NCBI GenBank assembly: GCA_964556895.1
Contig: CAZKYC010000004.1
Location: forward strand, 11,964-75,963
Direction: 5' to 3'
DNA: 64,000 bases
DNA from: an uncultured bacterium
GTDB lineage: Bacteria; Hinthialibacterota; Hinthialibacteria; Hinthialibacterales; Hinthialibacteraceae
In this document: positions 76 through 60,435 of the stretch, one piece after another
Numbering within the stretch: position 1 is the first letter of the stretch
Layout: the number at the start of each line of letters is the position of its first letter
Notes under the pieces: model-generated
Seen by the model: only the letters and a program-made list of their open reading frames with translations
What the model was told of the DNA's origin: nothing
The model's database searches: none
Translations under genes and position numbers: made by a program

Positions 76-819
76 ATGGCAGACAGCATCCGCGTTGTAG
101 TGAACGGCGCCAAAGGGCGTATGGGATCAGAAGCGGTCAAAGCAATCAACCAAGCGCCCGACGCTACCCTGGTGGGCGCGATAGACATGGGAGACGATTT
201 AGCCAAAACGATTGAGGCCGAAAAACCTGATATCGTCGTCGATTTCACGGTCCCAGACAGCGCCTTCACAAACACCTGTATTATCGCCGACTCGCCCGCT
301 GGCGGCGTGATTGGAACCACAGGCTTCTCAACCGAACAGATTCACGAGTTGCGCCAAAAAGCGGCGATGAAAAATCCCGGCGTGATTATCGCCCCCAACT
401 TTTCGATCGGCGCCATCTTGATGATGCACTGCGCTCACATCATCGCCCACCACATGCCCCATGTTGAGATCGTCGAGATGCACCACCCCTTCAAGCTCGA
501 CGCGCCGTCAGGCACCGCGGTCAAAACAGCCGACATGATGGCCCATGCGGTCAAAGACACCGATGTTCCATGTGGAACAAACGAACAACGCTCGCGCGGT
601 GAAGTGAATAATAACATCCCAATTCATAGTATCCGCCTGCCGGGTTACCTCGCCCATCAAGAAGTCATCTTTGGCGCCGACGGCCAGACGTTGACCCTGC
701 GCCATGATACATACCATCGTTCCTGTTACATGCCGGGCGTCATGATGGCCATTCGTGAAGCCATGAACCGCGGCGGCGTAACCTATGGGCTAGAAAACAT
801 CCTGTTTCCGGCGCAATAA
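76..819 (+). CDS. dapB: 4-hydroxy-tetrahydrodipicolinate reductase
   Basis: N-terminal GAKGRMG NAD(P)-binding motif and the E(M)HHxxKxDAPSGTA catalytic motif are both present. Length is about 247 aa. A GGAGGA RBS precedes the ATG at 76 (the track ORF starts earlier, at 58). The stop overlaps the rsmG start in TAATG. Confidence 0.9.
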   Translation: MADSIRVVVNGAKGRMGSEAVKAINQAPDATLVGAIDMGDDLAKTIEAEKPDIVVDFTVPDSAFTNTCIIADSPAGGVIGTTGFSTEQIHELRQKAAMKNPGVIIAPNFSIGAILMMHCAHIIAHHMPHVEIVEMHHPFKLDAPSGTAVKTADMMAHAVKDTDVPCGTNEQRSRGEVNNNIPIHSIRLPGYLAHQEVIFGADGQTLTLRHDTYHRSCYMPGVMMAIREAMNRGGVTYGLENILFPAQ

Positions 820-1538
820 TGGACAAAACCGCCTATTTTCTGGCGTTTGACGCCCATCTAAACCGACAAAACCTCAATGTGGAACCTGCGGCGATAGAAC
901 GTTGCAGGCTCTATTTTTATTTGTTACACAAAGCCAACCAAGCCACTAACCTTACCCGGCTTGATTTGCCTAATGAATGTATCGACTACCATCTCGTTGA
1001 TTCTCTCCATCTCTATGAGGCGTTGAAGACAGAGTCGCTGTCATCACTGATAGATGTCGGTTCTGGAGCGGGCGTTCCTGGAATTCTGATGAAATGCCTC
1101 AATCCAGACATTCGCTTATCTGTCATAGATTCCGTCAAAAAGAAGATGGACTTTGTCAACGCGGCGATTCAACAACTAGAGTTAAGCGAATCAAACGCAA
1201 TCGCTGAACGTGCAGAAGCGTTGGGGCATGATAGCCAACACCGTGAATACTATGACTGCGCCACGGCGCGGGCGCTGGGTTCTCAGTCATATTGTCTAGA
1301 ACTTTGCGCCCCATTTGTGAAGATGGGTGGAGTGGTTGCCTTGTTGCGCAGCGACATCGATGAAACCACCACGCCAGACCAATTTTTTGAAACCCTGGGT
1401 TGTAAGAAAGAAAGCACTCATGAATATCAATTACCTGGGCGAGATAAGGCGTTTCGAGTGGAAATTCACCGAAAAGTTTTAACAACTCAAGAAAAGTTCC
1501 CTCGAAAACCTGTGCAAATCAAAAAGCGTCCTTTATAA
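819..1538 (+). CDS. rsmG: 16S rRNA (guanine527-N7)-methyltransferase RsmG/GidB
   Basis: SAM-binding motif DVGSGAGVPGI and overall GidB-like length and order. Sits immediately upstream of parA-parB, as in the conserved gidB-parAB arrangement. Confidence 0.85.
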   Translation: MDKTAYFLAFDAHLNRQNLNVEPAAIERCRLYFYLLHKANQATNLTRLDLPNECIDYHLVDSLHLYEALKTESLSSLIDVGSGAGVPGILMKCLNPDIRLSVIDSVKKKMDFVNAAIQQLELSESNAIAERAEALGHDSQHREYYDCATARALGSQSYCLELCAPFVKMGGVVALLRSDIDETTTPDQFFETLGCKKESTHEYQLPGRDKAFRVEIHRKVLTTQEKFPRKPVQIKKRPL

Positions 1539-44054: not shown

Positions 44055-44945
44055 CTACTTCACCCAGTCGTCAAACAGCTGATTAAGATCGTCTGGGTCA
44101 GGTTCGCCTGAAAACACAACAGTTCGGTATTTTAGATTGAGCGTGTCACCTTTGTTGAACTGCCAGGGTTGTTCCAAAAAGTTCAAATTGGTCGGCGAGA
44201 AAAATCCGTAGTTGCGCGTAAACCACTTCGCCGGGAACCACGGGTTTTTGGGGTGGTCAAATATCGCCAGACCTTCGGTGGCTCCCAGGCGGTTTCCAAA
44301 ATAGGCCATCCACTCTGACTCGACGCTCAAGGTGGCCTTTTCGCCTTTGTGTCCCTGTTTGTTGACTAAAGTTCCGCCTGAGTTGACGCATAGTTCCGGC
44401 GCCATGCGGGCCGAAAACAGCGAGTGGTTGGTGCGCTCGATCTTCACTTTCATCTGGGCGACGAGCGTGATATCAAAATCAATCACGCGCAATGACTCAT
44501 TAGGCGCGGTGATGGTGACGCGGCGTTCGTCGATGAAGGGCATGGGCGCGCCGGGCCTGACCCATTCACAGCGCTGGATAAACACCACGCGGTCGCCGCC
44601 CGCTTCGATGAGTTTCATTTTGTTTGAGATGATTTGCCCTCGCTCGAGCGTGTCTTGCCAGTAGTTGCCGCCGTTGACCTTGTCACAGCCAAAGAACAGC
44701 GAGTGATGATGGGGATACGGCTCAGAGGTCTGGGTGGTGACGCTGAGGCCCGTCGCGGGGCCGTTGACTGGATAAAAATACGGGTATTTTTCGTTGGTAG
44801 CGTAGCGATAATCAGTAAACACTTCGCCATCGACGGTCACCCGAACAACATCGTCAAGTTTGACCGCACCGACCGTTTGAGGTTGAGCGGCGGCGGTCGA
44901 AACAAATACACAGATCGCTGTCATGGCTAGAATGCAAATACGCAT
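44055..44945 (-). CDS. PmoA-family (DUF6807) protein, secreted
   Basis: Signal peptide. PYPHHHSLFFGCDKVNGGNYWQ matches the conserved HHxSLWFxHGDVNG block of the PmoA-like family. Confidence 0.55.
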   Translation of the reverse strand: MRICILAMTAICVFVSTAAAQPQTVGAVKLDDVVRVTVDGEVFTDYRYATNEKYPYFYPVNGPATGLSVTTQTSEPYPHHHSLFFGCDKVNGGNYWQDTLERGQIISNKMKLIEAGGDRVVFIQRCEWVRPGAPMPFIDERRVTITAPNESLRVIDFDITLVAQMKVKIERTNHSLFSARMAPELCVNSGGTLVNKQGHKGEKATLSVESEWMAYFGNRLGATEGLAIFDHPKNPWFPAKWFTRNYGFFSPTNLNFLEQPWQFNKGDTLNLKYRTVVFSGEPDPDDLNQLFDDWVK

Positions 44946-44948
44946 GGC

Positions 44949-46148
44949 TTAGGCCTCCCACATCTTTCGCTGTTTGGCGTCGTATTTCATTACTTTATTG
45001 CGGCGAATCGACTGGGCCGTCATGATGCCCGCGACCGAATGGGCTAGGCCCATCTCGACCGGGGTGCGCGGGTCTTGGCGCGAGCGCAGGCATTCGATCC
45101 AGTTCCACATATGGCTGGTGGTTTTGGCGGGCGGTAGCGTTTTTTCACCTTCGATCTTGTTTGCGCCGCCGCCGTCGCCTGATACGACCGCTTTCCACAT
45201 ATCGAGTTTGCCGTTGGTCCCATAGGCGATGCAGTGAGTGTCGGCTTCGTTGCACAGGCTCATGGTGAAATTAAGTTGGAAGCCAGATGGATATTGGGCG
45301 ATGACGCCGATGGTGTCAAAGGTCTCGCGCCCGTCTTCGCCCCAGAAATAGACGCCGCCGCCGCCGCACAGCGTATGAGGAAACGGGTCGTTCATGGCGT
45401 AGGCGATCAGGTTGTAATAGTGTGACATCCACAGGCCGGGCAGCCCGTTGGTATAGTCGCGGTAGAGATACCAGCGCTTAAAGCGCTTGGGGTCGAAGGC
45501 TTTTTTGGGGCGGTGCATCTGAAAGTTGTCCCACTCAACGTCAGCCTGTTTGACGTCGTCGTAGGGTTTGCGCCAGCGCGGTTGGTTGAAGTTTTGTGAA
45601 ATCGAGACGCGGGTGATTTTGCCCAATTCACCCGACTGGGCCGCCTCGGCGCAGGCGATAAAGCGGCCGTCGCTGCGCCATTGGGTGCCTACCTGGACGA
45701 CACGCTTCTTCTCGCGCACCGCGTCAACGGCAGCGATGGCTTCGTCAAAGTCGATCGCCATGGGTTTTTCACAGTAGGCGTCTTTGCCAGCGTCGGCGGC
45801 TTCTTTCAAAATCTTGGCGTGGCCAAAGTCGGGCGTGGCGATGACCACCGCGTCAATCGACGGGTCGGCCAATACTTCCTCATAGTTGTCGTAAGTTTTT
45901 GGGGGCGAGTCTTGATTGTCATGCACCTTGGCGGCGGCTTTTTCGAGCGTCGGCTTCCACACGTCACAGACCGCGCCGATCTCGACGTTTAATTCGCTGC
46001 AGGCGTGAATGTCGTTGATGTGTTGCATGCCGCGCACGCCGCAGCCCAACACCGCCAGGCGCAGCGTGTCGTTCGCGCTGGCGGCGCGTGGAACCTGTAA
46101 GGCCAGCGCAGACAAAGCGCCGCTTTGAATAACGGTTCTGCGTTTCAT
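44949..46148 (-). CDS. Gfo/Idh/MocA family oxidoreductase with twin-arginine signal
   Basis: MKRRTVIQSGALSALAL Tat motif, then a LAVLGCGVRG Rossmann motif and a GFIA C-terminal domain. Confidence 0.75.
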   Translation of the reverse strand: MKRRTVIQSGALSALALQVPRAASANDTLRLAVLGCGVRGMQHINDIHACSELNVEIGAVCDVWKPTLEKAAAKVHDNQDSPPKTYDNYEEVLADPSIDAVVIATPDFGHAKILKEAADAGKDAYCEKPMAIDFDEAIAAVDAVREKKRVVQVGTQWRSDGRFIACAEAAQSGELGKITRVSISQNFNQPRWRKPYDDVKQADVEWDNFQMHRPKKAFDPKRFKRWYLYRDYTNGLPGLWMSHYYNLIAYAMNDPFPHTLCGGGGVYFWGEDGRETFDTIGVIAQYPSGFQLNFTMSLCNEADTHCIAYGTNGKLDMWKAVVSGDGGGANKIEGEKTLPPAKTTSHMWNWIECLRSRQDPRTPVEMGLAHSVAGIMTAQSIRRNKVMKYDAKQRKMWEA

Positions 46149-46276
46149 GGTTTCTCCCCTTTAATGGACGACGTCTGATTTATTTAAGGGGGAGGGCGAA
46201 CCTCCCGGTGAGCCGCATACAATGAACATGTTTCTAAACAAATCGGCTCGTCAGGAGACTCGCCCTCCCCCAATCA

Positions 46277-46798
46277 TTATGAATTTGAATAGGTCTCGGC
46301 GAATTGATGGATCGCGTCTTCTTGCCAATGGGTTTCGATCGCGCTGGGGCGGCAGCGGCGCACCTCGGCGATGGCCTGTTCCGCCGAACGCCCCTGAGTA
46401 ACCAAGTAACAGGCGATCATGGCGCCGGTGCGGCCCGACCCGCCCAGGCAATGCAACACAATGGGTTTGTCGTTTTTGATGTTTTCATTTGCGAACGAGA
46501 TAAACTCGTTTATCTGAGATGGAGTCGGCGCGGTCATGTCAGGCACAGGGATATGAATACAGCGGATGCCCGCTTCTTCGATGCGGTCGTGGGCGATGGG
46601 GGCTTCGGTCAGGCTGACTAGGGCGCCGATACCTTTGACTAGTAACTCTTCAATCTCGCGGTTGAGTTCTTCATCAGCGGCGTTGTCGGCGTCTTCTAAA
46701 TAGAGATAGGCGCGCGAACCCGTAGGCAGCCCCATGCCGGCGATGACGTTCTCAATGACCCAGTAAAAGTTTGATAACATCCAATCCCGTCCCATCAA
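46277..46798 (-). CDS. dual-specificity / protein-tyrosine phosphatase
   Basis: HCLGGSGRTG (the CX5R P-loop) about 110 aa in. 173 aa. Confidence 0.65.
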   Translation of the reverse strand: MMGRDWMLSNFYWVIENVIAGMGLPTGSRAYLYLEDADNAADEELNREIEELLVKGIGALVSLTEAPIAHDRIEEAGIRCIHIPVPDMTAPTPSQINEFISFANENIKNDKPIVLHCLGGSGRTGAMIACYLVTQGRSAEQAIAEVRRCRPSAIETHWQEDAIHQFAETYSNS

Positions 46799-46879
46799 TG
46801 GTTCTCCTATAGTGTACTAAAAAGTGGGCGCGTGTCCAATTGGCGGGGCGGCCTTCACGCCTGATGTGTTTGTGCGCTA

Positions 46880-47224
46880 TCAGTATGGTCGGCCCCAGCA
46901 ACCTGAATACCCTGTTGGAGTTGATCCCGCCTTATTGGCAGCCTTGAGACCAAGCGCGAGATGGTAGAAGAGCGCTCGTCGCTCAACAGTGCTGATCACA
47001 TTGTCATCCCCTTGATGATCGCCAAGGGCGCCAACGACCCGCGCGTGAAACAGGCTGAGAGCGAACCGATCGTCGACGCGCTCAAAGAAAAGGGCAAAGA
47101 CGTGGTGTATTTGTTGTATGAAGACGAAGGCCACGGTCTGCTCAAGCAGGAAAACCGCCTTCACTTCTATACTGAAATGGAAGAGTTACTCGCCAAACAC
47201 CTCGGCGGAAGGGTAGAAAAGTAA
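46880..47224 (+). pseudogene. 3-prime remnant of an S9 (prolyl oligopeptidase / dipeptidyl-peptidase) family peptidase gene
   Basis: The intact C-terminal 87-aa ORF has ...PLMIAKGANDPRV...YEDEGHGL..., which carries the catalytic Asp and His region of S9 alpha/beta hydrolases. Upstream, ...NLNTLLELIPPYWQP stops (TGA at 46937-46939) and must shift frame to continue. No N-terminal domain or catalytic Ser. Confidence 0.5.
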
Positions 47225-47391
47225 GTCGTAACGCAGCAGGGGGTGCAGCAAACTGCACCCCCTGATTAAAGCATAAGAGAAACGCAACTCTCTATTTATA
47301 CTTGCTTGAATGTGATCTAAGTTAGCCAAAAATACTTGAGCTTTCATTATGATTATTCAAAACAGATCACAGCGCCGCCTGGGCTTCGCGT

Positions 47392-49287
47392 CTAGGCGGC
47401 GTTTCTGTCTTGGTGTTTATTGGCGATTGAAACAAATTGCTCTTCTAATGCGATGAATGCATCGACGATATCAGGATCAAATTGCGTCTCTCTTCCATCA
47501 AGAATAATCTCTTTGGCTTTTTGATGAGAGAACGCTTCTTTATAAACCCGTTTGCTGGTCAGGGCGTCATAAACGTCTGCAATCGCCATCAATCTGGCAG
47601 AGACAGGAATCTCTTCTTCCTTTAATCCATAAGGATACCCTTTGCCGTCCCAGCGTTCGTGGTGTGCGTAGGCAATTTCACTGGCGATTTTAAGAAATGA
47701 ATCCGATCCGAGTTGTTCGACGGCGCGTTGCAGCGTGTCGCCGCCGTAGATGGTATGTTTCTTCATGATCTCAAATTCTTCATCCGTAAGACGCCCTGGC
47801 TTCAACAAAATCGTATCAGGGACGCCTACTTTTCCAATATCATGCAACGGCGCTGATTTGTACAATTGTTCAATTGCTTTCGATGTTAATTCATTTTGAA
47901 AACGGGTATTGTCCTGCAAAAATTCTGCAATAATTTTAACGTACAGCCGAGTTCGCTGCAGATGTTCGCCTGTCTCTGGGTCGCGCGTTTCAGCAAGCCC
48001 GGCCAGGCATAATATCGTAATGTCTTGAGTATTGTTTAAATCTGCCGTTCGTTGTTCCACTTGATCTTCAAGATGAAGGTTTGCGTTCAGCAACATTTCT
48101 TCCATCTTGCGGATATGGGTAATGTCGCGTCCAGCAATAATGACTGCAGGTTCTTGTTCGAAACACGACAGTACATATTCCATATAACGCCCCTGGATTT
48201 CAGTCTGGACTGTCTTGCTTGAATCAACTCCTGCTGCTAACGCGCTTTGTATCACTTGTAGAATGTTTGGCGGAAGGATCTTCTTTGCGTCTGTCTTATC
48301 AAATCCAAAGTGAGTGAGCAGTTGTTGTGCGGCAGGATTACAATATAACACTTCACCAAGTGAATTCATCTTGATAACGGGATTTCGATCTGCTTCGGGA
48401 AAACGAGAGAGGCTTGATACTTTATCGATGTATTTACGAATTAATTGGTCGCGATGTTCACGGTCATATCTTAAAGAACCAATCGTGCGGATAATCGTCC
48501 ATATTCCAACAGTTATGAATAAAGATAAACTAATCCAAATTCCAAACGCTAGACTTGGATTAGTATAAATCAGGGTTGAAAACAGCACACAAATAAAGGC
48601 GTAAATTCCTGCTGCTGGCAATGCTGCGTTAAACAATGCGCGATGGTCTTGAAAGTGTTTCTGATGGTTGATAAAAGATGAAATGAAGCGGGAAAATGCG
48701 AGTTCGCAATACGAATATTTGACGACAAATTTTCTTTCGTGAGCAATAAAACGCATTTCAGAACAAAACTTATGAATGCCGCCATCACTCAACAACCGGG
48801 CCGTAAGTTGGCTTTTCTTCCATGAAAAGCGCTGTTGAATTGTCTCTGGAGTTGCTGTGAGTTGATCAATGCAATAAAATAAAATCAGCATAGATTCAAG
48901 AATCTGATTGTTTTCAAGTAATACATCAAATTCAACTTCTTCGATGTTGTTTGAAATTAGAAAATCTGCCAGCAGGTTTGAATTTGATAACTGAAATGTC
49001 TGTTTGGCTGATATCCCAGTAATCTCGTTTCTATCAGGCCTGAGAATGAGCCGGTCGGTTTGGCTCTGTTGCAGAAACGGAAAAATATCTTTTTCTAAAT
49101 GGTCTGCAATCGGCCGCAGTTGAGCCATCATCTTTCGATATTTAGTACGCAGCCTGTATAAAAGCCATTCACCTTGTAAGAGCGCGGCGCCTGACCTGGC
49201 GCATTCAAAAACGCCGATTGGATGTTGAACATTGGTATGTTCTTGATGGTCAACATATTGGCTCTTGGCAGCATTCATAATAGCCAT
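47392..49287 (-). CDS. membrane-associated sensor HD-GYP domain protein
   Basis: C-terminal HDIGK...HHERWDGKGYPYGL HD-GYP signature. The central region has TM helices and a PAS-like segment. The N-terminal half is markedly AT-rich. Confidence 0.75.
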   Translation of the reverse strand: MAIMNAAKSQYVDHQEHTNVQHPIGVFECARSGAALLQGEWLLYRLRTKYRKMMAQLRPIADHLEKDIFPFLQQSQTDRLILRPDRNEITGISAKQTFQLSNSNLLADFLISNNIEEVEFDVLLENNQILESMLILFYCIDQLTATPETIQQRFSWKKSQLTARLLSDGGIHKFCSEMRFIAHERKFVVKYSYCELAFSRFISSFINHQKHFQDHRALFNAALPAAGIYAFICVLFSTLIYTNPSLAFGIWISLSLFITVGIWTIIRTIGSLRYDREHRDQLIRKYIDKVSSLSRFPEADRNPVIKMNSLGEVLYCNPAAQQLLTHFGFDKTDAKKILPPNILQVIQSALAAGVDSSKTVQTEIQGRYMEYVLSCFEQEPAVIIAGRDITHIRKMEEMLLNANLHLEDQVEQRTADLNNTQDITILCLAGLAETRDPETGEHLQRTRLYVKIIAEFLQDNTRFQNELTSKAIEQLYKSAPLHDIGKVGVPDTILLKPGRLTDEEFEIMKKHTIYGGDTLQRAVEQLGSDSFLKIASEIAYAHHERWDGKGYPYGLKEEEIPVSARLMAIADVYDALTSKRVYKEAFSHQKAKEIILDGRETQFDPDIVDAFIALEEQFVSIANKHQDRNAA

Positions 49288-49431
49288 TCTGTCAGATTAA
49301 GATGATATTTTTTACATAGCAAGTCGTGACAGGATGTATCTGTTATTGTATGCCCTCAATTGTGAATGCCAAAAAATAGAGAAGCGAAGAGTTTGTCGGA
49401 ATTTTTACAGACCCGAATAAATGTTGCCCCT

Positions 49432-50736
49432 CTAATCAATGTTCAATCCAATTTCGACTTGTCCTTTTGAATTATTTGTGATTTTAGCCCCTCCTGAAAA
49501 ACGGTTGCCAATAATTGAAGCGGAACGTACACCGCTCTTTAACCTTATATGCTGTTTTTCTTCATCAATAAAATCACACCCATTAACAATTATACTTCCG
49601 CCATTCGCTATAATCGCTGGCGATTCATACTCTTTTTTTCCCCATCCTTGAAAATGGCAGGAAGAGAATATTACGGTTCCGTGGCCATCTATCAACGCAT
49701 GATAATCAGTAGTAGGAGTGCCCCAAAAACCGCAATTTGAAAATTTCACCGGGCCTCTATTGGTTTCGCTGACTTCTATACCAGCCATCATCTGACAGTT
49801 TGAGAACGCAAGGCCTGCGTGGCGTTGAGAATCATCTACACGAACCGCTACCGGCCCTATATCCGAACCGCATTGAGTTAAAACGACGTTGGGGGCGCCG
49901 GCTTCAGTACGGACAAAGTGAAATCCGATTTTGGGGAAGATCACGAAGCAGTTCATCATGTACTCCCAATCGGTCTTTCCAATCCGAAAACCGACTAAGT
50001 GATCCATCAAATAAGTGAGCAACTTGTTCCAATCCTCACTCCCCTCTCTGGGAGGATTAGGGATATCGGCGCGCGCCCAAGAATGAGGGTTAAAATGGAC
50101 GTTTTCGATTCTACCGATATCAGTTGTTTGATTGATGAAAATTCCTTCACGCAGCGGACAGCCAAACACATTTCGGACGTGATGGAGTTCGTTGGGCTTC
50201 GTACCGAAATCAATCCCTCGGTAAGGGTTCACTAGCGTCACGTCAATTACGCTGCAAAACATGCCTTGTCCTCTAATCGTCCAAGGATAGGGCTGTATTG
50301 ATTTCGCTTCCTGCTCTGGATAAAAGATGGTAAGGCCTCGTATACAACTGCTTTGATTTAAGGTGATGAAGGGGTCTCCATTTTCATCGCCTTTGCCTGC
50401 GACGACGAATAACTGGCTGCCGCGTCCAATATCCGCATGATGCATCGATTCCCAGACGCCCCGCAAGGTTACGCCGGAAGGAATCACAATGTTCCCGGAA
50501 AATAAATATTGGCCTGAAGGAACGGCGACAATTCCACCCCCTTTTTCAGAAGCAAAATCTAAGGCTTTCTGAAAAGAGTTTGTGCAGTTTGTCTTCCCGT
50601 CCGCAACGGCGCCGTGATCCAAAACCGAAGTAAGAACCAAAGGGTCTTGTTCGATTTGCGCAAAAACCCCGAAACTACAAGCAGCGCATAAGGTGAAGAT
50701 TATAGAGATTCGGATCATCATATGCCTCCAACCCAA
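49432..50736 (-). CDS. secreted right-handed beta-helix protein (pectate-lyase-superfamily / GH28-like)
   Basis: Signal peptide. LDHGAVADGKTNCTNSFQKALDFA matches the N-terminal Pectate_lyase_3 motif (YGAxGDGxTDDTxAIQxAI). Repetitive beta-helix rungs follow. Confidence 0.5.
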   Translation of the reverse strand: MGWRHMMIRISIIFTLCAACSFGVFAQIEQDPLVLTSVLDHGAVADGKTNCTNSFQKALDFASEKGGGIVAVPSGQYLFSGNIVIPSGVTLRGVWESMHHADIGRGSQLFVVAGKGDENGDPFITLNQSSCIRGLTIFYPEQEAKSIQPYPWTIRGQGMFCSVIDVTLVNPYRGIDFGTKPNELHHVRNVFGCPLREGIFINQTTDIGRIENVHFNPHSWARADIPNPPREGSEDWNKLLTYLMDHLVGFRIGKTDWEYMMNCFVIFPKIGFHFVRTEAGAPNVVLTQCGSDIGPVAVRVDDSQRHAGLAFSNCQMMAGIEVSETNRGPVKFSNCGFWGTPTTDYHALIDGHGTVIFSSCHFQGWGKKEYESPAIIANGGSIIVNGCDFIDEEKQHIRLKSGVRSASIIGNRFSGGAKITNNSKGQVEIGLNID

Positions 50737-51022
50737 TCAGAAGTGTCTTATTGTTATGGTCTGATATTGAAGATATGTTAACATTCTTCTATGAGTACTC
50801 GAATAGCGCTGTGTGTTTCATTCACATATCGTTTCTTATCTCTCACCAGAGAAGCGGCTGAAATCGCCTCTCTCTGTGAATTGAAACTTGCAGAGCGATT
50901 TGATAGATTTGTTAACGATACTTAGAAAGTGAATTGGCTCAGAAATTTGGGACGGCGTGCAGATGAACAAAGCGATGTAGTGGACTACTGATCTTTGCCG
51001 TTATGCCCATGAAAGGGAATCC

Positions 51023-52657
51023 ATGTTACCGATATGTAAACAAACACTGGCTTTTCGAATGCGATCTGGAGTGATGACGAGAGGGCTAGGCGTGGTAGCC
51101 GCGGTCATGACTCTGTATCTTTTTATGCACGATCCGCTCATCTGCTCCGCAATGCCTTCGGAGGAAAGCGTCAAGTTAGGCAAAGACGTCGTCTTGTATG
51201 GAGAATTTGGCGCACGCGGTGATGGCGTGTCTGACGATATCGACGCCATTGCCAAGGCCCATGAATTCGCCAACCAGCACGGCCTCCCGGTGAGGGCCGA
51301 CGATGAGGCGACATATTACATCGGTGGGAAAGATAAGACGGTTGTCATACAGACCGACACCAATTTCGGATCGGCCAGGTTTATCATTGATGACACTTCT
51401 GTCGAAAACCGCAGTTCACACATCTTCGAGGTTCCATCGACACAGAAGTCATTTGACCTGAAAGGGATTTCCTCCCTAAAGAGAAACCAGTCCAAGATCA
51501 ATGTCTTGTTGCCCGATACCTGCCTGGTCCGCGTCACCAATTCTGGCGTCAAACACTATATCAGGTATGGCGCCAACCGTAACAATGGAACCTCGCAAAC
51601 AGATATCTTCATCGCTGACAAACAGGGCAATGTCGACATGAATGCCCCGATTGTTTGGGATTTCGACACGATTACGCGCATCACTGCCCAACCGATCGAC
51701 AAGACCCCATTGACAATCACCGGAGGACATTTCACCACCATGGCTAACAACGCTGAGTCGACCTACGCCTACTACGCACGCGGGATCGCGATACGCCGCT
51801 CTTCTGTTGTGGTCGATGGTTTAGAGCACCACATCATTGGCGAGGGAGACCACGGCGCACCCTATGGCGGATTCATCAACATTAGCAACTGCGTCAACGT
51901 GACGGTTCAGAACACCGTTTTGACCGGACACAAGACGTATCGAACAATCGGTTCTGGGGGAGTTGGAGTCTCCATGGGGACCTATGACATTTTACTCAAC
52001 CGGGCCCTGAATGTTTCCTTCATAAACTGCCGTCAGACCAATGATATCAAGGACCGCACATACTGGGGAATCATGGGTTCCAACTTCTGCAAGAACCTTC
52101 TATTCGACAATTGCACCTTCTCTCGTTTTGACGCCCACCAAGGTGTTGCCAATGCGACGATCCGCCATTCGACTCTGGGTCATATGGGAATCAACGCGAT
52201 TGGCAGTGGAACGTTCCTCGTGGAGAACACCACTGTCTATGGAAGAAGCTTCATCAACCTGCGTTCAGATTACGGCAGTACATGGCGTGGTGAGTTCGTA
52301 ATTCGAAACTGCACCTTTACGCCCGCGGGCGGCAACCCGGTCACCGCCAGTCTGATTGGCGGGTCTTACTCTGGGCAGCACGATTTTGGTTACACCTGTT
52401 ACATGCCTGAACAAATCACTATCGATACCCTTCACATCGACGACACCCAGCACCCTGATAATTACCCCGGGCCAGCCATCTTCTCGAATTTTAACCGGCG
52501 TTTCACAGATGGTTCTTATGTGGAGAAATATCCGTACATCAAGACCAAAGAAGTCATACTCAAGAACGTGACGACCGCCAGTGGCAAGCCCCTGAGGCTA
52601 AGCGACAACCCCTTCATGTTCAAAGATGTGACAGTTCGATTCATCAACCACGAGTGA
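51023..52657 (+). CDS. secreted right-handed beta-helix protein (pectate-lyase-superfamily)
   Basis: GEFGARGDGVSDDIDAIAKAHEFA, the same Pectate_lyase_3-type motif. Many NxT/NxS-rich rungs. Start uncertain: 51023 or the internal Met at 51062/51077. Confidence 0.5.
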   Translation: MLPICKQTLAFRMRSGVMTRGLGVVAAVMTLYLFMHDPLICSAMPSEESVKLGKDVVLYGEFGARGDGVSDDIDAIAKAHEFANQHGLPVRADDEATYYIGGKDKTVVIQTDTNFGSARFIIDDTSVENRSSHIFEVPSTQKSFDLKGISSLKRNQSKINVLLPDTCLVRVTNSGVKHYIRYGANRNNGTSQTDIFIADKQGNVDMNAPIVWDFDTITRITAQPIDKTPLTITGGHFTTMANNAESTYAYYARGIAIRRSSVVVDGLEHHIIGEGDHGAPYGGFINISNCVNVTVQNTVLTGHKTYRTIGSGGVGVSMGTYDILLNRALNVSFINCRQTNDIKDRTYWGIMGSNFCKNLLFDNCTFSRFDAHQGVANATIRHSTLGHMGINAIGSGTFLVENTTVYGRSFINLRSDYGSTWRGEFVIRNCTFTPAGGNPVTASLIGGSYSGQHDFGYTCYMPEQITIDTLHIDDTQHPDNYPGPAIFSNFNRRFTDGSYVEKYPYIKTKEVILKNVTTASGKPLRLSDNPFMFKDVTVRFINHE

Positions 52658-52947
52658 TCACAAGAGGCCACTGGCCGCTTGGTTAAACTGTAGGTAGTTT
52701 TTTTCTGGTCGTCAGCGCCGCGTGGCGGCGACTCTCTCAAAAGCGCAGGAAGCCACGGCGTCCGTCCGCGTCAACAGATATCGATCCGGGATGTGGCTGA
52801 TGAAGATCAGGCCGTAGGGCCCGTAAGTTTGGTCAGCACGCGATAGAGCGAAAGCGTTTCGATTCTACGCGGTTCGTCAGGAGGTTCGCCTTGCCCCATG
52901 CTTCAGTCGCTAGCGCTTCATCACACTTTTGTTCTTTACGGTTATAT

Positions 52948-57093: not shown

Positions 57094-58206
57094 TCACTCT
57101 CTCACTTGCAGGTAATGCCAAATCTGTTCGCTGGCGCCGTCTTGGGTGACAACGCGGATGCGATAGGCCAGGCCCTGATGGTTGCGCATCGGCGGCAGGC
57201 CCCATATCGCGTATTGAGATTCAGCGTCATGAAAGCGCACCGGCTTGGGCAGCGCCTCAAACGGCAAGCGCAAGCCGTATTGAACCTCACAAATGATTGA
57301 TTCAATCTTGAACTCACGCGGCAGTTGAGCGTAGAGCCTGACCGCGCTTTCAGTCGTGGGGCGGGTTGGTTCATGATAAACAGAAAATGTCGAGAAAAGA
57401 TCGCTGCGGTCAATTTGGGTTGGCGTCCAATTGAGCGCCTGTTTTTGGTCGTCATCGACCCAGGCCGCTTGAATCGAATCGACGTATTGCGCCAGGCCCA
57501 TCACCGAATTGTTGATCGGCTCGGGGTGAGGCAGGCCGATAGCGTGGCCGATGCCCTCGTGATAAGTGACGCCGTCAGTGCCTTTGATAGGGACGCGCCA
57601 ACCGTCAGCCGTGACCAGGCCCAGGCCAATGTGTTTATCGGGCCAATAGACCGACCGCGACCCGCCCGCCCGCGTACCGGGGCGGTCTTCGCCGTTGCTG
57701 ATGACAAAGCCGTCACAACGGCTGTGAGGCGGCCCCAAGAAACAGCGCGTCGGGTCGCAAGCGCGCATCCAATCGTCGTAACCAGGCGAAAAATTACAAT
57801 CAGCCATCACCAACAAGATCGGGAAGGCGCCGTCTCTCCACGCGACGGCGCCTGAATGCCGCACCTCATTCATGATCTGCCAATAAAACGTGTTGACGTC
57901 GTCTTGGGGGAACCCGTTTGGCGTGGCCGAAGCGACGAACGGCCCAGCCATTATGTTGTATGTAAACCGTGACTGCCCGGCGAATTCTCGTTGATGAAAT
58001 TTTTTACTTCGCTCGAGGTGATAGTTTACCCGCTCGCGCCAGTCGGGCAGCGGCACCGCGCCTTGAGCGATGTAATACACCACCTGAACGTCGATTTCAT
58101 CGATGGCGTCGTCGCCGTTGAAGGCGTGCATCTGAGACACCGACGCCGGAGCAGCGAACACGAAAATACAGATAGCCAACAGGGCAACTCGTAAAAACCG
58201 TTTCAT
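57094..58206 (-). CDS. secreted protein with HExxH zinc-metallopeptidase-like motif
   Basis: Signal peptide. HEGIGHAIGLPH (HExxH plus a downstream His) near residue 215. Confidence 0.4.
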   Translation of the reverse strand: MKRFLRVALLAICIFVFAAPASVSQMHAFNGDDAIDEIDVQVVYYIAQGAVPLPDWRERVNYHLERSKKFHQREFAGQSRFTYNIMAGPFVASATPNGFPQDDVNTFYWQIMNEVRHSGAVAWRDGAFPILLVMADCNFSPGYDDWMRACDPTRCFLGPPHSRCDGFVISNGEDRPGTRAGGSRSVYWPDKHIGLGLVTADGWRVPIKGTDGVTYHEGIGHAIGLPHPEPINNSVMGLAQYVDSIQAAWVDDDQKQALNWTPTQIDRSDLFSTFSVYHEPTRPTTESAVRLYAQLPREFKIESIICEVQYGLRLPFEALPKPVRFHDAESQYAIWGLPPMRNHQGLAYRIRVVTQDGASEQIWHYLQVRE

Positions 58207-58824: not shown

Positions 58825-60435
58825 ATGAAGAGCTCAATTCAATCTAATTTAGCGTTTGCGTTGCCGCTTACGGTCATGGCGTTGGTCGTATTCGCCATTG
58901 TAGGCCAGTCCTATTCGGTTGCTACCCGCGTACTCTACCCGATAGACGACCCCTACATTCATTTGGCGATGGCGCGCCATTTCGCTGAACATGGCCTATG
59001 GGGCGTGTCGCTCGCCGGGTTTAGCGCGAGTTCGTCTTCACCCGGATGGACCGCTCTGTTAGCCAGCGGGTTTTATCTGTTCGGTTCTCAAGAATGGCTG
59101 CCGCTCGCGCTCAACATGGCCGCTGGTCTTGCCCTCATCTGGCTGTTTTGCGTCTATTTGATCCACCAACAATGGCATTGGGCCGCTGCAGGCGCAACCG
59201 CAACGCTTGTGTGTTTTGTTCTTCCCCTGCCCGCCTTGGTTTGTTTGGGCATGGAGCATACCGTTCATGTTTTGTTCGCCGCGTTGCTGGCCTATCTGGC
59301 GGCGCGGCAGCAAACTGAAAGCCCAGATTCTTCCCCCAGTTTGTTGTTTTGCACAGCGGCCGTCGCCACCGCCTTTCGTTTTGAAACCGTCTTTGTGGTT
59401 GCTCCACTGGCGTTGATGTTTATCGCGCGAAAGCAATGGAAGACCGCGCTGGGCGCGACCATCTTTAGCGCGCTGCCGATTGTCGTCATGGGCGCAATTC
59501 AACTCGCCAACGGATGGGAATTTTTCCCGGCGTCTATTGTACGCAAGAGCGTCTTGGGCCAAGCCGGACTGGCGTTTTATTCGCAACTATACACGCGCTT
59601 GTTTGGGCAATTGTTTAACACCGGGCATCTACTGGTTCCGTATGTGTTGTGTCTGGTGGTGTTCTGGCGTAAGAGCGGCCGACCCTGGAGCCAAGAGCGC
59701 GTATTGAGCGGGGTGTATTTGTGCGCCGCGCTGCTGCATTGCGCCGCCGCGTCGATTGGTTGGTTTTACCGCTACGAAGCCTACCTGTTGGCCATCGCCT
59801 TTCTGGCGCTGGCGCCGCTGGGGCCAGAACTCTGGCAAAAATGGAAGACGCTCGCCAGCGAATCTTCATTCACCGAGCGTTGGACGCTCAGGGCCCTTGC
59901 GCTGGCGGCGGCGATTCTACTCACGACGCCCTATGTCTGGAACGCATCGTCAATCGCCAAAATCGCGCCCGGTTCTACCAACCTGTTTCAACAGCAATAC
60001 CAAATGGGATTGTTTTTGCGCGAGTATTATCAGGGCGAAACCGTGGCCGCCAATGACATTGGCGCGATCAACTTTCTGGCTGACATTCGTTGTCTTGATG
60101 GGATGGGTCTGGGCAGCCGCGAGCCGTCGCTGGCGGCGCAGCGCGGGCGCCTCAACGCGGATTTCATTGACACATGGGCGCGCCAAGAACAAGCGGCGAT
60201 CGCGGTCATCTATGAAAATTGGTGGGACGGACGGCTGCCCGCCAGTTGGATCAAGATGGGCGAGTGGACCGTTGACCAAAAAGTGTCGGTCGCTGAGCCG
60301 ACGGTATCATTCTATGCAACTGCCCCGCTTGAGGCTGAACGGTTATACGCCTGTTTAAAGCAATTCACCCCGCGCCTGCCCGACGGGGTATCGGTCGTTT
60401 TGGCCGAGAAAGACGTCCCGGCGCCGACACAGTAA
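58825..60435 (+). CDS. polytopic membrane protein, GT-C-fold glycosyltransferase-like (ArnT/PMT-like)
   Basis: Twelve or more TM helices. The first extracytoplasmic loop has a YPIDDPYIH acidic motif reminiscent of the GT-C DD/DE motif. Large C-terminal soluble domain. Confidence 0.35.
   Translation: MKSSIQSNLAFALPLTVMALVVFAIVGQSYSVATRVLYPIDDPYIHLAMARHFAEHGLWGVSLAGFSASSSSPGWTALLASGFYLFGSQEWLPLALNMAAGLALIWLFCVYLIHQQWHWAAAGATATLVCFVLPLPALVCLGMEHTVHVLFAALLAYLAARQQTESPDSSPSLLFCTAAVATAFRFETVFVVAPLALMFIARKQWKTALGATIFSALPIVVMGAIQLANGWEFFPASIVRKSVLGQAGLAFYSQLYTRLFGQLFNTGHLLVPYVLCLVVFWRKSGRPWSQERVLSGVYLCAALLHCAAASIGWFYRYEAYLLAIAFLALAPLGPELWQKWKTLASESSFTERWTLRALALAAAILLTTPYVWNASSIAKIAPGSTNLFQQQYQMGLFLREYYQGETVAANDIGAINFLADIRCLDGMGLGSREPSLAAQRGRLNADFIDTWARQEQAAIAVIYENWWDGRLPASWIKMGEWTVDQKVSVAEPTVSFYATAPLEAERLYACLKQFTPRLPDGVSVVLAEKDVPAPTQ

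Follow-up and report, generated by a model that had tools for sequence, protein, structure and literature searches.

Small genomic islands, or islets, are horizontally acquired blocks of genes with an atypical composition. We analyzed a 64-kb stretch of contig CAZKYC010000004.1 from an uncultured bacterium (hereafter, the window), in which a block of low GC content, encoding an HD-GYP protein and a β-helix protein, lies directly to the right of the remnant of a family S9 peptidase gene. The block resembles the known islets in being sharply bounded, of low GC content and of atypical codon usage, in carrying accessory genes for signalling and carbohydrate activity, and in being absent from the corresponding locus of relatives, but it differs from the classical islands in having no integrase, transposase, tRNA target or flanking repeats, and in being very small (3.8 kb, two genes). 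A first-pass annotation of the window had taken the block and the remnant as products of one event, i.e., a horizontally acquired insertion that destroyed a peptidase gene. The acquisition is supported by the sharp edges of the block, by its codon bias and by its absence from relatives; the destruction is contradicted by the topology of the locus and by a peptidase remnant in a relative, L015. We therefore regard the block as an ordinary small genomic islet beside an unrelated old pseudogene, both of known kinds. The features at the centre of this analysis are:

47260..51060, no strand: low-GC block, putative horizontally acquired islet (GC 0.43; change points, Logan contig match)
47392..49287, minus strand: HD-GYP protein, 631 aa (Pfam HD_5, PDB matches, motifs)
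49432..50736, minus strand: right-handed parallel β-helix protein, 434 aa, predicted to be secreted (PF12708, AlphaFold2/Foldseek)
46850..47224, plus strand: remnant of an S9 (prolyl oligopeptidase family) gene, now a pseudogene that keeps the last ~125 of ~610 codons (PF00326, BLASTP)

The edges of the block, 47260 and 51060, were placed by a two-change-point maximum-likelihood segmentation of 40-58 kb, which gained 75.5 in log-likelihood over a single segment. GC is 0.431 within these edges, compared to 0.547 in the left flank, 0.537 in the right flank and a mean of 0.530 over the whole window. Viewed in 500-nt windows, GC drops to 0.36-0.45 at 47.25-49.75 kb, and to 0.36-0.49 over the full distance from 47.25 to ~51.0 kb. 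Tetranucleotide usage was measured as the Kullback-Leibler divergence of each 2-kb window from the whole window; the robust z reached 9-11 over 47-50 kb, whereas the maximum elsewhere in the 64 kb was 3.6. The coding sequences follow the same pattern. GC at third codon positions (GC3) was 0.397 in the HD-GYP gene and 0.455 in the gene for the 434-aa β-helix protein, relative to 0.644 +/- 0.077 in 46 long open reading frames (ORFs), and the divergence in codon choice from the remaining ORFs was 0.176 and 0.173 for the two ORFs of the block. Furthermore, GC at the first and second codon positions was likewise depressed in the HD-GYP gene. The compositional deviation of the block is real and far above chance. 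The first-pass annotation had described an AT-richer block from ~47.25 kb, which the GC windows, the segmentation and the tetranucleotide divergence all confirm, and had proposed the comparison of codon usage with native genes in which both block genes proved to deviate. Its estimate of 55-65% GC for the background was too high, with native DNA lying at ~0.50-0.58.

The first of the two genes belongs to a family in which several structures have been solved. The C-terminal 215 residues of the islet protein align end to end with the solved HD-GYP domains of PmGH (PDB 4mcw) and PA4781 (PDB 4r8z). In these two proteins, as in RpfG of Xanthomonas, the input module is a REC receiver; the islet protein has instead an unannotated region of ~210 residues, two transmembrane helices and a PAS-like stretch. 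In order from the N-terminus, the ~210 residues matched no Pfam family, the two hydrophobic segments that we take as transmembrane helices lie at ~218-270, a weak PAS-like stretch follows at ~300-400 (the PAS_9 match at residues ~300-335 being sub-threshold, E 0.08), and the HD-GYP domain occupies residues 413-627. This domain is matched by Pfam HD_5 (E 2e-31, 109.3 bits, cut-off 27.2) and HD (66.1 bits, cut-off 22), as well as, over its whole length, by PDB 4r8z (E 1.3e-54), a cyclic di-GMP (c-di-GMP) phosphodiesterase and the nearest solved structure, and by 4mcw (E 5.3e-46), and it retains the signature motifs, i.e., HD at residue 482, HHE at 542 and GYP at 550 ('AYAHHERWDGKGYPYG'). The membrane sensor HD-GYP protein named by the first-pass annotation is thus borne out by Pfam, PDB matches, motifs and the two helices. 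By its sequence, the protein has the features that define the family, and its input module is non-canonical and uncharacterised. Hydrolysis of c-di-GMP is predicted, set off by a signal that the N-terminal and PAS-like region would sense. The sequence also matches PDB 5z7c (E 8e-28), which is V-cGAP3, an enzyme specific for 3'3'-cyclic GMP-AMP (3'3'-cGAMP); because of this match, the choice between c-di-GMP and 3'3'-cGAMP as substrate is not readable from homology alone. A very short loop joins the two helices, so that the N-terminal region and the PAS-like/HD-GYP part would face the same side of the membrane, presumably the cytoplasm, and the protein would lower cyclic dinucleotide levels once its input region is triggered. 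Around 45 unnamed metagenomic proteins have the whole architecture at 40-47% identity, with none closer among 5.8 billion sequences. PADLOC gave no meaningful defence match for the islet genes, the HD-GYP protein having just weak matches to Cas3-type (HD-domain) models (E 0.003-0.01). The genomic contexts of three homologues (contigs L009, L020 and L102) bear on the composition of the block: these HD-GYP genes have a host-like GC, with values of 0.55-0.56 where the locus is at 0.57, and in L102 GC is uniform across the locus at ~0.57. Thus, the HD-GYP family is not intrinsically AT-rich.

The second gene encodes a protein with an N-terminal hydrophobic, signal-like segment, in which PF12708 matches the N-terminus only (E 8.5e-12). 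AlphaFold2 with a 17-sequence alignment gave a model with a predicted local distance difference test score (pLDDT) of 91.9 and a predicted template modelling score (pTM) of 0.88, compared to a pLDDT of only 42 from the single sequence. The top Foldseek matches of the model in the PDB were the AlgE4 A-module, the Sf6 and HK620 tailspikes, GH28 exo-galacturonases and the RbmB lyase, with a probability of 1.0 against 2pyh, 4urr, 3jur and 9ozd. The predicted model has its fold in common with the A-module of the mannuronan C5-epimerase AlgE4, with GH28, with phage tailspikes and with RbmB of V. cholerae, although the identity to these is just 10-15% at TM-scores of 0.3-0.6, and neither catalytic residues nor a substrate can be assigned from them. 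At the sequence level, matches to characterised enzymes are confined to residues ~20-105; the family itself counts 970 representatives at E<=1e-30, the nearest being 56% identical. The first-pass annotation had called a secreted protein of pectate-lyase fold, in agreement with PF12708, the signal-like N-terminus and the AlphaFold2/Foldseek fold. Judged from the model, we infer that the 434-aa protein is a polysaccharide-active enzyme of the pectate-lyase-like superfamily, which would be exported and act on a polysaccharide.

To the left of the block, the native locus is defined by a three-gene cluster and the following elements:

44055-44945, minus strand: DUF6807 protein (PF14100 E 2e-60)
44949-46148, minus strand: GFO/IDH/MocA oxidoreductase (GFO; PF01408 E 4e-21)
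46277..46798, minus strand: dual-specificity protein phosphatase (PTPase), the native left-hand anchor (PF22785/PF22784/DSPc; GC3 0.66)
46808..46846, no strand: conserved region upstream of the PTPase gene, with ...CCAATTGGC at its end, the left edge of the S9 deletion (three-way DNA alignment)
47237..47264, no strand: perfect 12-bp GC-rich hairpin just 3' of the S9 stop codon (inverted repeat I3), at the left compositional boundary

Homology search with the PTPase protein located two relatives. L013 is an ENA metagenome contig (ERZ28505417 contig_78242) and L015 belongs to Candidatus Hinthialibacter antarcticus (GCA_030765645.1), described as a degrader of polysaccharide and protein from Ace Lake, in the phylum Ca. 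Hinthialibacterota, formerly OLB16 (PMC9324843). Their PTPase orthologues are 85% (L013) and 81% (L015) identical to that of the window, and the DUF6807-GFO-PTPase cluster is kept in both at 73-85% amino-acid identity; including a more distant relative, L002, the DUF6807-GFO pair is syntenic with the PTPase gene at 52-83%. Between themselves, L013 and L015 are 83-89% identical, i.e., closer to each other than either is to the window. On the far side of the PTPase gene, both carry a 74-aa gene and then mnmE, and no HD-GYP or β-helix gene is present there in either; the window has neither the 74-aa gene nor mnmE. The comparison of synteny suggested by the first-pass annotation therefore found the block absent from the locus in both relatives, in line with acquisition, and found in L015 a decayed S9 remnant shorter than that of the window in place of an intact peptidase gene.

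The peptidases of family S9 (dipeptidyl aminopeptidase / acylaminoacyl peptidase) combine an N-terminal β-propeller with a catalytic domain whose triad includes the serine of a GxSxGG motif, in ORFs of about 600 aa or more. The remnant in the window keeps the regions of the Asp (GANDPRV) and the His (EDEGHG), and differs from the family in having no β-propeller, no GGSYGG serine and no continuous reading frame. It consists of a frameshifted piece at 46868-46952, which reads 'ISMVGPSNLNTLLELIPPYWQP*', and an 87-aa ORF at 46961-47224 that matches PF00326 positions 130-212/213; together they cover positions 124-212/213. The joined remnant is 58% identical to S9 C-termini (P0003) by BLASTP, with an 11-residue gap at the frameshift. 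In homologues, the GGSYGG motif sits ~23 residues before the start of the remnant, and none of the reading frames of 46799-46960 contains it; the β-propeller and everything else N-terminal of GGSYGG is gone. GC3 of the remnant is 0.67, which is host-like. The truncated gene described by the first-pass annotation, with its 87-codon tail, a frameshifted piece upstream and no N-terminal domain, is the one seen with PF00326 and BLASTP. As judged by its sequence, the remnant is no functional peptidase in any respect considered, i.e., serine motif, β-propeller and uninterrupted ORF. The 87-aa tail is recorded as a called protein (P0001) in NCBI-derived and Logan data, and this 'S9 peptidase' ORF ought to be annotated as a fragment of a pseudogene.

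The orientation of the remnant is decisive for its relation to the block. Its stop codon at 47222-47224 and the hairpin at 47237-47264 are intact and face the low-GC block, whereas the truncated 5' edge, at ~46846, abuts the native-GC upstream region of the PTPase gene on the other side. In a DNA alignment of the window with L013 and L015 (A1), conservation extends to ~46846 and is lost beyond this point. The 5' four-fifths of the gene cannot have been lost through insertion of the block at its present place, because the block adjoins the intact 3' end and the missing part lies on the opposite side. The relatives provide a second line of evidence. In L015, ~115 nt between the PTPase and 74-aa genes align with window 47105-47223, i.e., the 3' end of the S9 gene, at ~71% identity; the local DNA alignment scores 49, where shuffled sequences reach 9.8 +/- 1.2 (maximum 15), and the tblastn E-value is 5e-6. 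The stretch reads '...QDEGRGL / ENRLRF*SHMEGFLAKHLGGRAGK*'; it is frameshifted and contains an in-frame stop, and its homology to the window fades within tens of nucleotides past the S9 stop codon. In L013 nothing of the S9 gene is detectable at the locus, and no intact S9 gene was found beside the PTPase orthologues of the more distant relatives L002, L017 and L018. Since L015 holds a remnant, and since the window is more distant from L013 and L015 than these are from each other, an S9 gene or pseudogene at this site was ancestral to all three. The gene thus also decayed in the L015 lineage, which never had the block at this site, and the proposal that the insertion destroyed the peptidase is defeated by this. 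The first-pass annotation had held that relatives with the same fragment and the same neighbours would argue against its reading; L015 comes close to this, with a remnant at the site, but it has only the left-hand neighbours in common with the window.

A role of the block in the truncation, either by its insertion into an intact S9 gene or by a deletion tied to the insertion, could be argued from the physical adjacency of remnant and block and from the difference between the window and its relatives to the right of the remnant. We consider it very improbable: the block lies beyond the intact stop codon, and the missing 5' end, Ser nucleophile included, lay away from the block, against conserved native DNA; L015 does not have the block, yet it has an even shorter, frameshifted remnant at the site; and the internal 11-codon deletion and the frameshift in the window's own remnant point to gradual decay. 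We hold with high confidence that the S9 decay was independent of the low-GC block, the fragment being an older pseudogene that was eroded by deletions at the locus. A compositional island is not necessarily what broke a gene whose remnant lies beside it, and here the end of the remnant that faces the island, together with one comparison to a relative, was enough to separate the two events.

That the block at 47260-51060 was itself acquired horizontally is, in our judgement, likely, given its sharp edges, the bias at codon positions 1 and 2, the host-like GC of HD-GYP homologues elsewhere and its absence from two relatives. Several observations weigh against this. No donor can be named, the nearest homologues being 47% (HD-GYP) and 56% (β-helix) identical. 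There was no match to an integrase or transposase among the ORFs of at least 150 aa scanned at 31-64 kb, where the ORFs 57094-58206 and 58825-60435 matched no family; there is no tRNA gene in the 64 kb; and boundary-to-boundary alignment found no direct or inverted repeat flanking the islet better than in shuffles. The adjacency of HD-GYP and β-helix genes is missing in L009 and L020, two of the three other contexts sampled. To either side of the three-gene cluster these genomes have little synteny, so that the block's absence from the locus in the relatives argues only weakly for a gain. Finally, the composition of native genes is itself not uniform: the core gene rsmG (819-1538, plus strand; TIGR00138 E 2e-38) has a GC of 0.463 and a GC3 of 0.458, as low as that of the islet's β-helix gene, which shows some native heterogeneity.

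This last observation is the best support for the view that both genes are native, were inherited vertically and are atypical in composition through, for example, low expression, an AT-biased protein composition or a local mutational bias; the lack of mobility signatures, and a synteny with relatives too poor to prove a gain, also favour it. We nevertheless regard vertical inheritance as unlikely, because the deviation spans both genes and the intergenic regions with sharp edges, because the tetranucleotide z of 9-11 compares with values of <=3.6 elsewhere and of ~0.2 around rsmG, whose surroundings are no outlier in this measure, and because HD-GYP homologues elsewhere match the GC of their hosts. 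Alternatively, the block could be older and have been lost from L013 and L015, or could have been brought in by a larger rearrangement with its breakpoint at the end of the S9 remnant. The DNA to the right of the remnant is non-syntenic with both relatives, the window is without the 74-aa gene and mnmE, and rearrangement is evidently frequent in this lineage; the strong, unameliorated contrast in composition argues for a fairly recent foreign origin by whatever route, and leaves this alternative decidedly unlikely. As to a chimeric assembly, in which an AT-rich segment of another organism was mis-joined into the contig, the Logan contigs of run SRR7048222 do end near both compositional boundaries. 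However, both junctions are spanned at 100% identity to the window: L007 (SRR7048221) covers 46085-47525 and extends without a break from the GFO gene to within the HD-GYP gene, and L001 covers 47311-51124, from inside the block to ~100 nt into the native-GC 544-aa gene. A chimera is exceedingly improbable.

Taken as a whole, the explanation that we think probable is that an islet of ~3.8 kb with two genes came from a donor of lower GC and settled to the right of the DUF6807-GFO-PTPase cluster, with the S9 decay as a separate matter. The host would be a bacterium related to Candidatus Hinthialibacter, and the islet would sit in a poorly conserved stretch of its genome. As the route of arrival, illegitimate recombination or recombination through homology in the flanks may be taken as the default guess. 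Searches for still closer genomes found none. Among GTDB species representatives, a search with the GFO protein gave nearest matches of 56-62% identity, which have at most the three-gene cluster in common with the window; a scan of JGI metagenomes with the 777-aa WecG/sugar-transferase protein gave a sole fairly close match (61%, on a 2.7-kb contig); and exact look-ups of window proteins returned only short Logan contigs of the same strain. The genes at 51-64 kb of the window are non-syntenic with L013 and L015.

Within the islet, the β-helix gene lies 144 bp upstream of the HD-GYP gene on the same strand. This 144-bp gap contains the region's best promoter-like match, which makes co-transcription uncertain. 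The two genes may be co-expressed and may have a joint role in the control of a polysaccharide matrix or biofilm. Support for the pairing comes from L102 (Logan SRR29366194), where a 39%-identical β-helix homologue (L102:653-3297) shares its strand with a 43%-identical HD-GYP homologue. This β-helix homologue is split at about residue 268 by a gene for an IS4-type DDE transposase (1436-2605), and its last matching segment ends ~2.7 kb upstream of the HD-GYP homologue. The L102 arrangement hints that the two genes travel together. An S9-like hydrolase gene beside the HD-GYP homologue of L009 was considered as a conserved pairing and rejected: the two genes are divergent there and convergent in the window, the L009 protein is a different hydrolase of 305 aa, and the pairing is absent from L020 and L102. 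A functional coupling of the islet genes, for example of matrix polysaccharide remodelling with c-di-GMP-driven dispersal, is possible but weakly supported. An extended version of this idea, in which glycanase and sensor HD-GYP form a mobile, coupled 'matrix-remodelling' cassette and the flank of the PTPase cluster is a hotspot for AT-rich cassettes without integrase, we regard as quite unlikely. It draws on the same order and orientation of the genes in L102, an unrelated genome of 57% GC, for the cassette, and for the hotspot on a different cassette of 3.1 kb with 40-nt att-like repeats, which lies in L013 a few hundred bp away. Beyond annotation the islet is of little importance; it would record one likely transfer of genes for c-di-GMP signalling and glycan processing into the uncultured, polysaccharide-degrading Ca. 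Hinthialibacterota.

The insert in L013 (L013:6348-9526) is 3139 bp long, is likewise AT-rich (GC 0.30-0.37, GC3 0.25) and lies between mnmE and the 74-aa gene. Its genes encode proteins of 202, 345 and 437 aa, which by eye have hydrophobic, signal-like N-termini and for which Pfam, PADLOC and PHROG gave no match. A 40-nt direct repeat flanks the insert; its two copies are 85% identical overall and share an uninterrupted core of 27 identical nt. L015 has a single copy of the repeat and no insert. This is a signature of site-specific integration, yet the insert has no integrase. With its repeats the insert bears the mark of the classical islands, whereas the islet of the window does not, and the window has no copy of the att-like motif found in L013. 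The 74-aa protein next to it (L013:9585-9809 and L015:9443-9667) is 88% identical between the two relatives and has no Pfam match.

Minor features of the window were recorded around the islet. The Logan contigs of run SRR7048222 (L001 and L008) break at 47311-47329 and at 51124, ~50-65 nt from the compositional edges, which may reflect presence and absence of the islet among strains or an accident of assembly. A promoter-like site is found upstream of the PTPase gene (minus strand, 46838-46811). Between the GFO and PTPase genes there is a hairpin (46188-46271, with 28-nt arms and a 28-nt loop), one arm of which is ~78% similar to 52862-52897. The latter is intergenic, and the two may be copies of a short repeated palindromic element that occurs only twice in the 64 kb. 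The 36-nt similarity of 46188-46223 to 52862-52897 was considered as the ends of an island and rejected, because it brackets the ancestral PTPase gene as well. Rfam had no match in the window. To the right of the block lies a second β-helix gene, with 52862-52897 in the intergenic DNA downstream of it:

51023..52657, plus strand: second β-helix protein, 544 aa (phrog_23059; N-terminal membrane/signal segment)

Over residues 52-496 this protein is homologous to phrog_23059 (E 9e-45), a family of phage tail fibres and tailspikes, and among SPO1-like Bacillus phages it has counterparts of ~31% identity. No other phage genes are nearby, and the protein is probably a cellular depolymerase of a family common to phages. 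The first-pass annotation had assigned the gene an intermediate GC; with a GC of 0.512 and a GC3 of 0.628, the latter within the native range, its composition is native-like, and for this reason the gene is not demonstrably part of the islet.

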